Shown here in pieces: positions 21,001 to 27,000 of a stretch of DNA of 64,000 bases; positions within the stretch are counted from its first letter, which is position 1; the number at the start of each line of letters is the position of its first letter. Origin of the DNA: Escherichia phage CMS-2020a; the sequence record CP054387.1; one strand, 5' to 3'. Position numbers: made by a program.

Positions 21001-24000
21001 ATTTGCAGCACTTCCGAAAACACATTGTGCGTCGTATTGAGATAGCTCTTTTCTGAAACCTTCGACCATCTTGAGGAACAGTTCGTTATGCTGCGAGTAC
21101 TTGCCAGTTGCCAAATCAGCTTCGCCTTGCATCCAGACAACACCAAGAAATACATTCTTTTTGTTTTTACTTAAGGCCGCTTTTGTTCTGGCTACAATAT
21201 CCTTATACAAAGGAGTATTTAATCCCCATTTTAAAGATGATTCGATTGCACCTGACTCTTCATAATATTGGCCTTCAGAGCCTGTAACAGTGAAACCAGA
21301 ACCACCTCTTCCGCAAGGAACGAGCAAAATACCTGCGTTTGCTGGAATGAATGGTAATAGTTTTTTGCCAATGTGTAGTCCCTGACCAACACATCCATAT
21401 TCAGAGTCGTTTGCTTTTGGATGCTTGAATTTAGTCATGTCTTGTACATCATGAAGACAGTGATCAGCGGGAATTATTTCATTGTACTTACAGGCAAAAC
21501 CACCTGGTTTAATATTGCTGCGTCGAGCTAACTGTTTTACGCGAGGATGTGGCCGATCAAAAGTTTTTGGCATAGGCAGTCCTTCGCCGTATGACATTGA
21601 GTTGGATTGACCTGCGATAGTAACTACATAATAATAGTCAGGCTCTTCATCTTCATTTGATACCGGTGTGGGCAATTGTGATAAATCACCAGATCGCACA
21701 ATTGCTTGATTGTACGCATTTGGTCCGCCCTTACTTGGTTCAACAATGTTTGGTGACTCGAAAGGTTGCCAACCCTCTGCGATTTTCTCCGCAAGTTTTT
21801 CTCTAAGCTCTTTGCTTGATGATGCTGACAAAATATCATAGTCAATGAATGACATAATCGTTACTCCTTTAACGATAAACTTTAGCTAAAATCGTATCGA
21901 TTTTAGCAGTTAAAAAACGACAATAAAATATAAGAGTAATGTATGAAAGAACAATAAAAATTGCGTAAATGGATATGTGTAAAATATGTGGAATTTCACA
22001 CACAGCGTTGAGCGGTCTGGTTTATGTTAGCGGAGTCTTAATCGAGTTGATTAAAAGGCCAAACCGCTCAACGCTGTGTCTGGCGGAGAGTAATGGAATC
22101 GAACCATCATCGCTTGCGCAATGGGACGGTTTTCAAGACCGCTTGAGCACCATGCTCCCTACTCTCCAGTCGTTGTGGTTACCGGTACTGATCTCCGGCT
22201 TAGCGACCCCGGCTACTGACTGCATTGCAGTGTGTGAACTCGCCTCGTGTGTCGCTGGGGCATTTCTTTCCGCGCATCAGTCTGCGCATCAACCACAACG
22301 GAAAGAGCATTCACGTCTCGCGTGCCACCACGAATGGCAACTCAGAGAGTCGAACTCTGAAAATGTTCTTACCTGTTGTGCGCTCCGTTTCGTGGAGCTA
22401 ACGGCGGGTGAACAGGCCGCACCAGGTTGGACATATTTCAGCGTTATGCTGTTGCAAGAGAGCCAAATTGTGATGGTCGGCGCTGATCTCCGACACAGGG
22501 TTGTAGCAAGCCCCGCAAAGCGCGCACTACTGTAGTTGCGGCACATCAGCCTGTGCATTCACCACAATGTTGAGAACACTGGTTGTCACGCGGCAACGCA
22601 ACATTTATTCATAGATTGGGATATGACCCCGTTACGCCAATGTTCTCAATATTATGTTGGTGCCGATTAACGGGATCGAACCGATGACCATTCGCTTACA
22701 AAGCGACTGCTCTACCAACTGAGCTAAATCGGCAATTTGGTGGGGAGTGATGGAGTCGAACCACCCGAGTCGCAATGACAGTAGATTTACAGTCTACCCC
22801 GCTACCTCTACGGACTAACTCCCCTAAATTGGCGATGGTGGGTGGATTCGAACCACCGACCAGTTGGTTAACAGCCAACTGCTCTACCGCTGAGCTACAC
22901 CATCAATTCAGCACTGACAGTATTTATTACTCAACAGTGCCAATCGCGGCGGTGTTAGTTTCTGCCAGGAAACGCACCGCTACTTGCACTCTTCGTTAGT
23001 GCCAGACGCTTTCGACTTCGCTCAATAGAAGGCTAAATCTTTAAGTAGATGATGTTTCTGAGGACAGCACCTACTTTGTAATTTATACAATGTAATGTAT
23101 GGAATCATTTGTTGTGAAAACAGACACCAATGGCAACAGTGGTTAAACCTACACAACAATCCTGTCTTCACAACGTTGAGGCCACCACTCCGATTGAATG
23201 TTTGCCCAACATGTTACATATCAACGCTCGCCGGTATCTCTGTGAATAGAACCTTAGAATTGATAAAAATGTAATGGCCTCAACGTTGTGTGCTGGCTAA
23301 CCATACCAGCCGGGCTACGTCGCCGCTTTTTAACCCAGTATAAACGACATAATTGAACAAAATGACGTAACAGAATGGGCGGTCAGTGGCTAAGAATCCG
23401 GGAGTCATATGGAGTTGAAAATATACCGACCGCCCATTCTGTTACTTCATCGGAGGGAACACTCATGTTCCCTCCTGCGTTCTGCAATCACACTCGCTCA
23501 GTGTGTCCCATTTCGGTAACGAGGCTGGAAACTGACCTCGCTGGTGTTTGGCTTATTAGGCTACTGCCAGATAGACTTCTTCGTTTGCACTTGTATTTAA
23601 GTTCAAACAGTCGCGTCTCAACGAAAACAAAGTCATCTTATACATAGAAAATAAGTAAGTAAACACTTATTATTGTGTTTTTATTCGGTTGTGACTTTTT
23701 TGATCAAGGCCACTCTACGACTAGGTGTTCTTGTGATGGTGGCAGTGAATCGTTTCGCTTGGATAGTAATGGTTTCGTTCTCCTTAAGTTGCCCGTAGCG
23801 AGTTTCCACCAAGGTGCCAAGACGCCACAGACCATCATCGATACGTTTATGACTAGCAAATTTAATCAGCAACAGTTTTACGACTAACTGACCTACGTAA
23901 AAGGCGAATGCGACTCCGGCCGCTAAGAAATAGGTGACCAACCACCAGTCCCAAGAAGTTAAATTGCTCATTTTCTAACCTTTGTTTCATGAACTACCCG

Positions 24001-27000
24001 ATACACACGCTTTCCGATGCACAGTGTTTTGGTTTTAAGTTCCTGCTTAATTAAATCACGACAGATGCCGAAGCCGATAAGGAAGCCACCCATAAAAGCT
24101 AATGAGATGTATGGAATCATTTTAACGCTCCTGATTCTACTAATTGCTGTAGCAATACTTTCCCTTTATCAGTTAACTGGTAGTTGGCCGAACACCACGT
24201 TTCAGAAACGTTTGCAACCAACCCTAACCGCTCTAACTTAGCCCGCGTTTTAGGCTTCCAGTACTCAGGGAACTCCGACCACTTACTGATTTCATAAAGT
24301 GTTTCCTTCTCCCGTTTACTTAATACGATCATCCTTAATCTCCTTCACGGTGTTGGTTATTTCTACAATGCGATAAATGCGACCGCGTCTTTCTATAACA
24401 CCGTTTTTAATGTAGTCATTAATGCAACTGGACATCACCACAATACCGATTAAAAAACCAACCGCTAAAAATGCAATCATCCAGCCGAGCATCATTCTTT
24501 ATCTCCGATTCGATCTTCTGTATCGCGTAAGCAACGCGGCCATTTCAGTCGTGGGTGGCGTAAGCTGCCGTCCGGTGTTTTCTCGTGACAATGAACCTCG
24601 ACAATACGACCACGGTACTTCTCTTTGTTGTTCCAGATCTCATCCAGATATTTATGCTTAATGCCGCTCGCACGAACGATGACGCCGTTTTCAAGACGAA
24701 TAACAATTTTTCCAAGTGTGTTGGCAAAACCAGAGTCCGGGTCGCCCGGCTCAAAGTCGATAATTTCACCATCTTCTGAATCTTCGTCTTTTAACTTCCA
24801 CCAGCTGCGGGTACGTTTAAACTCGTAAACAGAGTTCGGATCTTTGCCCATCTCCCCTTCTTCGTTATCGTCCAGGCGTTTCATGAAGCGTTCGATGAAG
24901 TCTTCGTGGCTATGGATGATATAGAACGGATGCAGGTGAATGTCTTGTGTGTAGCCTTCACTGCGATCGTTTTTGAACAACGCCACCAGCATAGCCAGGC
25001 GCTCTTTCAGCTTCATACCTGTCTTTGCATACTCTTTGGATTTAGCCTGTGCTCGCCATTCCGGTAGGAAGAAGTCGAAAACATGATAAATAGCGCCAAT
25101 TGCCTGCACGTTCTTTTTGCGCAATGCAGATACGGACTGGTTAAATGAACCGGCTGTTCCTTCACCATCGAAGAAGATGTGTTTGTGGCCTGAAAGTTTG
25201 CCTAATTCGAGCATGGCTGGCTTTAGGTGATCGAGAGACGTGATTGGATTACCAGTACGAGAAAGGAAGTTAACCTCCTCCTCGTCAACAATAACCTCAC
25301 AAATTACTCGCAAACCATCGAGCTTAAGGCTGCCAATCATCGGCCATTTGGCTTTAGGATTTGGCTTGAAGGGGTATTTGTCGCCTTTTTCTTTATACGG
25401 TGACGCCAGCTGCACCTCGAATTTCGGAATGGGATTTTCAAAAACCTTGTTACATAGGCTAATCCCAACGCCAGCTTTCGGATCTTTTAAGAGGAAACGA
25501 CGGAAGACGTCCTGCCCATCGGCGCACATTGACGCCACGATAGACTCAACAGCAACTATTGCTGCGTTCCCCGTCAGCTCGCGAGAGGCCAGCTTATTCA
25601 GTACATCAATGGCTTTTTCGTCACTTGGGACGGACTCACTAAGCGGCTCTGCCACTTTGTATTTCTTTACCCCAAAACGGATGAAAGGGTTGAGCATCAA
25701 TGAAACCATGCTTTGTTCAAAGTCATCCATGTTGGCCAATGCCTCTTTTTTTGCATTGGTTCCCATAGCCTTCATTTCGTCCAGCTTATGTTTAAGTGCG
25801 ATCAACTTTTTCATTGTTGTTTTGCCTCCATATGTTGATCGATTTGCTCATGTGTTTCTTTTGTTGTTTCTTCAAGCAACGCCGCATACACGTCAGTGAT
25901 CGCTGTTTGTGATGTGGCGCTCTTCTTAACCATGCTATTAATCGTTACACTGTCACGCTTTCGTTTTATAGTTCTGGCTTGTTTATTCCGTTCTTCAACC
26001 TCCTTAATGAGTGCGGTCATATCTTCGAAATACAGAGATTCTCCTTTACGAATCTCTTCAACCATCATTTTTAACGCCTTGCATTTGCCTGCTTTGATAG
26101 CGGTTGCGCACGACTGGAATGAAGTTCGAGGAAGACGGTTTTCTTTGAAGGCAAGAATGGTGTGCTGGCAAACGGAGTAGCTGCAATATGCCGACTCACC
26201 GTTTATCTTTACTTCCTCACAACGAAGTGAATAACCATTATTTCCTGAAATAGAGGGGATTTTTGACAAATCAGCTTTCACAACCACCGCCACAAATAAT
26301 CTTGTACTTACCTATCATTCTTTGCGTAAAAAACGACACACTGAGAGATTACCAACTTCCCCAGCTAATCATCTTGCGCTGATTGCTTTCTAAGCGATAG
26401 GGGGCAAGAAGCTCTGTGACATGATTGGTGGCGTATGATTTAGCCTCTTGCTCTATCATCGGTAATTCGTTAGCAATCCTGACCACCTTCCCAGCAAATT
26501 CCGCCATTACGCCATCACATGCCTTCCCAGCATCAATAACGATATGCACCAGATCCAACTGGCTTTTGCACATGTCGTAAAGAGACGCATACTCACTCTC
26601 TCTGATTACATTTACGGCATCATTAGCCCCTTTATTAAGCAAGACTTCCAACAGGTTTGTCGGGGTAACGAAATCGGCTTTAAGTGACAATGTTCTCTCA
26701 CCTTTTATCGACCGTAAGTACTCTTCGTAGTTTTGCTTGTCTTCCAGCAAAACTAAGCTATGCATAGTTAGAAGTGATTCTTGAATAGCCTCTTCAATAA
26801 TACTGTCATTTGACGCACAAAAAACGGTATTTGTGTAGATCACTTTGCCATCCATCCATGCCCCAACCTGCACTTTAAGACTGATCGGGTTTTCTTTGCT
26901 AATAAAAACAACTAATGCAGAACGCCGTGCACAAGAAGGTTCACCCCATACGTGTAACTTAACCTTCAGATAAGGTAGCCCCGGTAGCGGGATCTCGACC

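Follow-up and report, generated by a model that had tools for sequence, protein, structure and literature searches.

Four Small Genes Behind the DNA Ligase of an SSU5-Type Phage-Plasmid: Conserved Candidate Membrane Proteins and a Predicted Winged-Helix Protein

The DNA considered here (the window) is a stretch of 64,000 nucleotides (nt) from sequence record CP054387.1, Escherichia phage CMS-2020a; by its sequence the carrying element is classed as an SSU5-type phage-plasmid. The cluster in question lies at 23681-24495 on the minus strand, directly downstream of an ATP-dependent DNA ligase gene, and consists of four overlapping small open reading frames (ORFs), o59, o71, o50 and o96, whose products have 59, 71, 50 and 96 amino acids (aa). 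All four are protein-coding genes under purifying selection, and they are the co-transcribed, co-translated tail of a lytic DNA-replication operon comprised of helicase, primase, two unknown genes and ligase. It is proposed, with a probability of roughly 0.4, that the single-pass membrane proteins predicted for o59, o50 and o96 would form an inner-membrane platform on the cytoplasmic face during the lytic cycle, a reading drawn by analogy with membrane proteins of Bacillus phage phi29. The sequences are already public as hypothetical proteins and are included in PHROGs; what is new here is the paralogy of o59 and o50, the core-pair architecture, the winged helix-turn-helix (wHTH) assignment of o71, the topology prediction, and several corrections to annotation.

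Evidence for Four Protein-Coding Genes

ORF size itself is uninformative at this locus, as 74 ORFs of at least 30 aa occur in 6 kb and ORFs of such size are frequent by chance; the four are considered genuine genes because of their PHROG matches, their plasmid-wide presence, and a deficit of nonsynonymous relative to synonymous differences. Each protein has a full-length match that covers both the whole protein and the whole profile, namely phrog_4381 for o59 (E = 6.8e-39), phrog_4054 for o71 (E = 6.1e-45), phrog_6302 for o50 (E = 8e-37), and phrog_4507 for o96 (E = 1.4e-58); all four are function-unknown families. Matches by tblastn are found in 532 (o59), 637 (o71), 682 (o50), and 653 (o96) PLSDB plasmid records, and the 1-kb locus as a whole matches 789 PLSDB plasmids from Klebsiella, Escherichia, Enterobacter, Salmonella, Yersinia pestis (pMT1-type), Citrobacter, and Cronobacter.

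Selection on the window genes was measured by the Nei-Gojobori method against 11 relatives; in all comparisons with appreciable divergence the proportion of nonsynonymous differences (pN) is far below that of synonymous differences (pS). Relative to Salmonella phage SSU5 the ratio of nonsynonymous to synonymous substitution rates (dN/dS) is 0.17 for o59, 0.14 for o50 and 0.10 for o96, while o71 has a pN of 0.20 against a saturated pS of 0.76. Over the relatives dN/dS ranges from 0.06 to 0.27 for o59, mostly from 0.14 to 0.31 for o50, and from 0.08 to 0.10 for o96.

No significant match for the four proteins or their family profiles was found in Pfam, NCBIfam, PADLOC, or the PDB sequences, and the literature on SSU5 exclusion, pMT1 locus tags, pMT1 small RNAs, and the 'natriuretic' label attached to o96 homologs (see below) yielded no functional study of these genes. 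The public homologs (SSU5_045-048, CYRAN_37-39, and those of the pMT1/pHCM2 type) have the same membership, gene order, and overlaps, and there is no difference in sequence; in public records no function is assigned to them, o59 or o50 is frequently missing, and o96 bears a wrong name.

Gene Order and Coding Junctions

The ligase (440 aa; 24492-25814, minus strand) matches Pfam DNA_ligase_A_M (E = 5.8e-13) and phrog_114 (E = 2.4e-125); it is followed on the same strand by o59 at 24316-24495 (59 aa, or 58 aa if the second ATG is used), o71 at 24117-24332, o50 at 23968-24120, and o96 at 23681-23971. The region is 100% identical to that of a 66.5-kb Shigella sonnei plasmid (CP022461.1), in which all four ORFs are annotated; identity is 97-98% to Escherichia phages CMS-2020a and Cyrano, and 76-79% to SSU5, where the genes are SSU5_045-048. 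The order helicase-primase-x-x-ligase-small genes is common to Cyrano, SSU5, and the window.

The cluster had been outlined in an earlier reading of the window (the sequence-only reading), whose coordinates and four protein lengths proved exact; it had also placed two of the ORFs under the cutoff of the ORF track, which is correct as 59 and 50 aa lie below the default of 60. Its description of the junctions as ATGA start-stop overlaps of 4 nt is borne out for o71/o50 and o50/o96, as well as for the ligase stop and o59 start, but not for o59/o71, where the overlap is 17 nt (o59 TAA at 24318-24316, o71 ATG at 24332-24330). A lack of conservation in relatives had been named beforehand as what would speak against the small ORFs; conservation is instead present, together with purifying selection.

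Along the chain the overlaps are +4 or +1, +17, +4 or +1, and +4, and the same values recur in the 11 relatives tabulated at all junctions with both genes present; a GGAG-type Shine-Dalgarno sequence lies 6-11 nt 5' of every start, and these sites are conserved in the same 11 relatives. A consensus promoter scan found no sigma-70-like promoter within the cluster, and the sole terminator-like call inside it, at 23946-23933, is a weak 5-bp stem within o96. An AT-rich hairpin read from the sequence at 23656-23680, to which no strand is assigned (AAGTA-AGTAAA-CACTT, with T/A runs on both sides), abuts the o96 stop; its stem is kept in eight relatives (alignment columns 404-417) and it was not called by the consensus terminator scan. 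This hairpin is a possible weak bidirectional terminator that would close the operon.

Expression in a Carrier Strain

RNA-seq data come from Cyrano, a relative 97-98% identical and not the exact element, carried by E. coli LF82; values are given as log2(fpkm+5), where fpkm is fragments per kilobase per million and 2.32 corresponds to zero, for two biological replicates (PMC9928086, S1 Table). In lysogeny broth (LB) the ligase CYRAN_36 stands at 2.45/2.66, and the homologs of o71 (CYRAN_37), o50 (CYRAN_38), and o96 (CYRAN_39) at 2.97/2.32, 2.32/2.32, and 2.83/3.0; in the macrophage condition MB1 the corresponding values are 4.32/3.9 for the ligase and 5.75/6.29, 5.95/4.8, and 6.15/5.36 for the three small genes (PMC9928086). 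None of CYRAN_36-39 is counted by the authors among the lysogeny-expressed morons (PMC9928086). The small genes are thus silent in the plasmid (lysogenic) state, like the ligase, and behave as repressed lytic genes.

In the macrophage samples of Cyrano the small-gene transcripts go up modestly; there and in late culture their increase exceeds that of the ligase transcript about 2-4-fold. The excess points tentatively to a difference in mRNA stability or to a weak start within the cluster; the consensus promoter scan gave no site for the latter.

The Membrane Proteins o59 and o50

The Kyte-Doolittle maxima over 19 residues are 2.60 for o59, 1.84 for o50, 2.00 for o96, and 0.33 for o71. These values agree with the sequence-only reading that three of the proteins contain one hydrophobic helix, namely o59, o50, and o96; its designation of all four as small membrane proteins is to be kept for these three and withdrawn for o71, which lacks a hydrophobic helix and is soluble. 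On the additive scale of apparent insertion energies of Hessa et al., o59, with a sum of −2.5, is clearly membrane-inserting; o50 has values between +0.4 and +3.6 and o96 between +0.9 and +3.5, both being moderately hydrophobic.

The o59 and o50 families align over 48 columns by hhalign with a probability of 94.5% (E = 8e-8), and on this sequence evidence the two proteins are paralogs. Both have a GxxxG motif in the N-terminal helix, their basic tails share an R-x-Y-R/K-V motif, and G13, G17, R39, Y41, and T47 are invariant in both families; the basic tail of o59 contains RRGRIYRIVEIT, and o50 has a Gly-rich N-terminal helix with GKRVYRVVHET in its basic tail. The alternating residue pattern of the tail suggests that it is probably a β-hairpin. 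An 'SSC' motif in o59 had raised the possibility of a lipoprotein or signal peptide; this was rejected, as the cysteine is not conserved and the N-terminal positive charge is absent.

The joint o59/o50 profile comprises 172 clusters, with 28 representatives recovered in an exhaustive hidden Markov model (HMM) search of 1.84 billion proteins. A distant member (P0211), on an unrelated phage-like contig, starts 4 nt after a gene for a YqaJ-type recombination exonuclease; further distant members (L013, L014, L022, L023) are found on short phage-like contigs with mostly uninformative contexts, and no o71 homolog was found in the contigs of the distant members. Pfam gave no confirmation of a nuclease suspected 5' of the L023 member.

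As a separate observation, the Salmonella plasmid AnCo3 (L012) carries at 1819-1971 an o50 homolog with a charged RRD inside the helix, an insertion-energy sum of +8.7, and a dN/dS of 0.52; the gene may be decaying in the AnCo3 lineage.

The Membrane Protein o96

Clustering at 90% identity gives 42 clusters for the o96 family, none less than 56% identical to the query; members with names and those on long contigs are enterobacterial and belong to SSU5-like elements of about 100 kb. Conserved columns are found in the helix (G19xxxA23xxxG27-Q28), in a juxtamembrane helix (VKLLL..FA..KRIDD.LW.LG.L.E), and in the tail (KRFT). The AlphaFold2 (AF2) model is of low confidence, with a predicted local distance difference test score (pLDDT) of 64.5, and features a long helix at residues 6-60 and a hairpin at 67-80. 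A similar W/Y-R motif had led to the suspicion that o96 is akin to o59 and o50; hhalign probabilities of only 0.4-3.6% led to its rejection.

Many o96 homologs (e.g., SSU5_048 and B9130_27255 of CP022461.1) carry the propagated label 'C-type natriuretic protein'. A natriuretic peptide family match for o96 was sought and not found, with no Pfam match at E ≤ 1 and no NCBIfam match; the name is a mislabel without support.

Predicted Topology

In all o50 and o96 homologs there are no Lys or Arg residues before the helix and three to five within the 15 residues after it, and the tails and mature proteins have an isoelectric point of 9.4-10.2. With Lys and Arg only after the helix, the positive-inside rule predicts an N-out/C-in orientation for the membrane families, which would leave almost nothing in the periplasm.

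The Predicted Winged-Helix Protein o71

The AF2 model of o71, of moderate confidence (pLDDT 79.5), has the layout H-H-β-β-H. Among its best 50 Foldseek matches in the PDB nearly all are wHTH regulators (CouR, FabT, MarR, SlyA, RosR, PadR), with query TM-scores (TMq) mostly of 0.6-0.77 and E-values of only about 0.03; matches in BFVD are mostly uncharacterized phage proteins of 60-100 aa, the few named ones including DNA-binding and MarR-like proteins. On the basis of this model o71 is assigned as a soluble, stand-alone wHTH protein that probably binds DNA.

Membership in MarR or PadR proper does not follow, as no family HMM scores above threshold; the best Pfam match, HTH_45, has E = 0.14 and a score of 12.6 bits, where 25.5 would be needed. 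At 71 aa, o71 lacks the dimerization helices and the ligand pocket of MarR proteins, whose length is about 140 aa. Its predicted fold is shared with many uncharacterized, stand-alone phage proteins of 60-100 aa. The o71 family consists of 28 clusters.

Distribution and Modular Architecture

The long contigs that carry the small-gene families are almost all enterobacterial and of about 100-112 kb, with many further matches on short contigs of unclear origin. Two SSU5-like elements with a ligase 74% identical to that of the window (L019 and L020) have a simpler arrangement, in which the ligase is followed by one 55-aa gene of the o59/o50 type (overlap of 1-4 nt) and then by an o96 homolog (HMM E = 8e-18 and 9e-8; overlaps of 8 and 14 nt with the preceding gene); neither o71 nor a second o59/o50 paralog was found in them. 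A Klebsiella element (L009) retains o50 and o96, and lacks the ligase, o59, and o71. Because the former two carry just ligase, o50-type gene, and o96, and the latter keeps o50 and o96, the o50-type gene followed by o96 is considered a stable core pair; in the sequences compared its two genes always overlap and, where a ligase is present, the pair is directly coupled to the ligase stop. By the same comparison o59 is taken as a dispensable duplicate, and o71 as an insertion between the duplicates that is specific to one sub-lineage.

The gene o59 behaves as a cassette. It is found in 139 of about 220 Escherichia PLSDB records and is missing, without a trace, from about one in three elements of this genus, for example from L003 (E. 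coli pYLPD4a); the Buttiauxella element L010 lacks it just as cleanly. In elements without o59 an ATGA overlap joins the stop of the ligase to the start of o71. The sequences just 5' of the o59 and o71 starts are near-identical, GGAGATAAAGAATGAT and GGAGATTAAGGATGAT, with the pattern GGAGAT(A/T)AAG(A/G)ATGAT, which suggests that the cassette was gained or lost by recombination between short repeats at the junctions.

The operon end varies further among relatives. Other Klebsiella elements have the o50 tail and o96 swapped for other small ORFs, among them a hybrid in which the o50 helix is joined to another tail; an ars operon follows an o96 remnant in Buttiauxella, and an HNH endonuclease is found at the operon end in K. 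quasipneumoniae. In Y. pestis the locus lies between caf1R and IS100, with no intact ligase listed and all four small ORFs intact. From the sequences of five relatives (L004, L007, L008, L010, L011) the operon end is regarded as a hot spot for cargo and replacement.

Possible Functions

The favored explanation is that the o50-type and o96-type proteins, with o59, would be made during the lytic cycle in fixed proportion to the ligase, and that their helices would pack via the conserved small-xxx-small motifs into a hetero-oligomer in the inner membrane. The basic, putatively β-hairpin tails would be the working parts on the cytoplasmic face, and the platform may act as a tether for replicating phage DNA or for the machinery of replication and repair; o71 would be a DNA-binding accessory added in its lineage. 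The probability of 0.4 applies to the platform as a whole, and the tether itself is graded lower. Doubtful, and well below the general statement, is the specific form in which o50 and o96, with o59 as a spare copy, would be an unrecognized two-component device of the inner membrane that physically links lytic DNA replication or repair, by way of genes such as those for the ligase and the recombination exonuclease, to its cytoplasmic side; if true, it would be a Gram-negative counterpart of phi29 p16.7 and p1 built from unrelated proteins.

In phi29, the membrane proteins p16.7 and p1 organize the replication of phage DNA at the membrane; p16.7 begins with a membrane anchor, continues with a helical or coiled stretch, and ends in a small cytoplasmic domain. 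The likeness lies in small early proteins encoded with replication genes, and in the similar predicted layout of o96; the anchor and the operon position are present here, and the orientation is predicted only from charge distribution. The two systems differ in that o96, o59, and o50 have no sequence similarity or demonstrated fold similarity to p16.7, the o96 model being weak, and in that phi29 is a Bacillus phage while the present element is a siphovirus phage-plasmid of a Gram-negative host.

Several points weigh against the platform. Hetero-oligomerization through small-xxx-small helices is, like the topology, inferred from sequence alone, and pore-forming peptides, too, typically have such motifs or glycine zippers; in distant family members, whose tails are non-basic (net charge of −2 to +1), the positive-inside signal is weak. 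The tails of o59, o50, and o96 gave no DNA-binding or protein-interaction domain in Pfam, NCBIfam, or PDB sequences, and the hairpin of o96 belongs to a model with a pLDDT of 64.5. Nor are the small genes essential to the replication module: o59 is absent from about a third of Escherichia elements, and several elements of Klebsiella, Buttiauxella, and K. quasipneumoniae have other sequences in place of o96. Position is non-discriminating as well, since T4 imm, an exclusion gene, is also located among DNA-metabolism genes.

Of the other explanations, lytic-phase superinfection exclusion, or the block of a host membrane protein such as a transporter or channel by products made early with the replication enzymes, fares best, although it is itself unlikely. 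Known small membrane exclusion proteins include T4 Imm and Sp, as well as HK97 gp15, and T4 imm and sp are expressed early in lytic growth. The cluster proteins are similarly small, single-pass, and located in the inner membrane by prediction, are encoded in an early-type operon, and have conserved helix-packing motifs that could dock onto a host membrane protein; the composition of the cluster also differs between lineages, as expected of arms-race genes. However, no match exists in PADLOC, Pfam, or NCBIfam, and T4 Imm/Sp, HK97 gp15, and P22 SieA, likewise small inner-membrane proteins, have no homology to the cluster. The strongly conserved tail motifs and low dN/dS are unlike those of fast-evolving exclusion genes, almost no residues are predicted to face the periplasm, and the genes are silent in the plasmid state, in which a temperate element gains most from exclusion. 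Proteins of the HK97 gp15 and P22 SieA type are expressed from the prophage, in contrast to the silent cluster homologs with their negligible predicted periplasmic exposure. Exclusion in the prophage state, one form of the superinfection exclusion that the sequence-only reading had offered, is thus disfavored, as CYRAN_37-39 are at or near 0 fpkm in LB and are not morons (PMC9928086); the cluster also has no promoter-like site of its own. None of the three generic functions in that reading (superinfection exclusion, holin modulation, small toxins) found confirmation.

Improbable, to a similar degree, are two further readings. In the first, the proteins are dispensable lineage-specific ORFans with marginal fitness effects only; their spread is narrow (28 representative clusters in 1.84 billion proteins for o59/o50, 42 clusters for o96, and 28 for o71), losses and replacements are frequent, and the AnCo3 homolog of o50 has charged helix residues and a dN/dS of 0.5. 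Such a role is at odds with the consistent purifying selection, with motifs that are invariant across Escherichia, Salmonella, Yersinia, Klebsiella, Enterobacter, and Cronobacter elements, and with the preserved overlap architecture. In the second, they inhibit host cell division or envelope growth by binding components of the divisome or elongasome in lytic growth. The analogue is gp56 of Bacillus phage SPO1, a small membrane protein that inhibits host division; the architecture is the same (small, with an N-terminal anchor, in an early operon) and the genes are dispensable in some lineages, but there is no homology to any known inhibitor and the case is one of analogy only.

A role in lysis timing, as holin, antiholin, or pinholin-like factors encoded apart from the lysis cassette, is very improbable. 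Holin modulators had been suggested for clusters of this kind, and some resemblance exists: residues 8-34 of o96 match the holin family phrog_2359 (E = 0.042, the sole holin signal), and the helices have glycine-zipper-like motifs, as do holin/antiholin pairs and pinholins, which are also small and sometimes paired. The phrog_2359 match, however, is insignificant and confined to the hydrophobic segment of o96, and no Pfam holin was matched by the cluster proteins at E ≤ 1. The cluster proteins further differ from holins and pinholins in having one helix and a long, basic, conserved soluble tail. Positional support is lacking, as a complete lysis cassette about 10 kb upstream, at 34833-36115, has its own holin homolog (107 aa, Cyrano-annotated; 35792-36115) along with an endolysin (35086-35778) and an Rz-like spanin (34833-35084), and the cluster is coupled to the ligase, and not to lysis genes, in all relatives.

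Least probable of all are small membrane toxins for plasmid addiction or abortive infection with o71 as antitoxin or regulator. In favor are the several toxin-antitoxin pairs found on phage-plasmids (in Cyrano KacT, RelE/ParE, and HicAB), the frequent toxicity of small hydrophobic peptides, and the presence of a wHTH protein among the four. On the other side, transcription in the plasmid state is zero or nearly so, the cluster has no promoter of its own in the scan, no Hok/Gef or other toxin family is matched (Pfam, NCBIfam, PADLOC), the core pair occurs without o71 in L019, L020, and L009, and overlapping codons tie the genes into an operon of lytic enzymes; the earlier suggestion of small toxins is disfavored on these grounds.

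The Adjacent Non-Coding Block and tRNA Region

Between the o96 stop and tRNA-Asn lies a conserved, structured non-coding block at 23275-23670, not assigned to a strand. It is 78-80% identical at the nucleotide level to the block of Klebsiella and Salmonella (AnCo3) relatives, above the neighboring genes; the Klebsiella elements at this level have o96 proteins 62-64% identical. The block is retained where o96 is absent, and is found in 773 PLSDB plasmids (734 near full length), unannotated in most of the matches listed. Its minimum free energy has a z-score of −5.75 on both strands relative to shuffled sequence, and alifold energies are −91.9 (plus) and −116.9 (minus). One hairpin has compensatory changes in five pairs, GGGAAC/GTTCCC in the window against GGGCAT/ATGCCC in SSU5, and a long stem (23371-85/23429-43) has one further compensatory change; searches of Rfam gave no family match and only sub-threshold tmRNA-like ones. 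The block may be a new RNA, an operon 3' untranslated region, a convergent RNA, or a tRNA-cluster leader; it borders the small-gene module and need not belong to it. In Y. pestis the F1 capsule regulator gene caf1R is located directly beside this block.

The tRNA region beyond it differs from that of Cyrano. At 21950-22700 of the window about 490 nt separate tRNA-Ser (22081-22167) from tRNA-Thr (22658-22733), a spacer absent in Cyrano, where the two tRNAs are 8 nt apart; it contains copies of repeated units (direct-repeat families D1 and D2), and inverted repeats of 23-24 nt flank the tRNAs. The window also has an extra tRNA-Tyr relative to Cyrano. A plus-strand ORF at 21969-22535 (188 aa), for which CP022461.1 lists a hypothetical protein, shares sequence with tRNA-Ser and is likely to be spurious. 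A minus-strand ORF beside the tRNA region, at 19942-21855 (637 aa), is annotated as a 9-O-acetyl-N-acetylneuraminic acid deacetylase in the identical plasmid and is missing from the corresponding position in Cyrano; it may be a cargo gene that serves interaction with the host.

Significance

As it stands, the cluster is an ordinary set of conserved hypothetical phage genes that would hold no surprise for a specialist. Its annotation can nonetheless be corrected: o59 and o50 are real, although often uncalled, and represent one family; o96 is not a natriuretic peptide; and o71 is by prediction a winged-helix protein. SSU5-type phage-plasmids are very common in clinical Enterobacterales and also carry resistance genes, and the locus is present in about 790 PLSDB plasmids, including those of the Y. 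pestis pMT1 type and Salmonella plasmids of about 106 kb; knowing the role of these proteins would clarify how such elements pass from the plasmid to the phage state and what they do to the envelope of the host.

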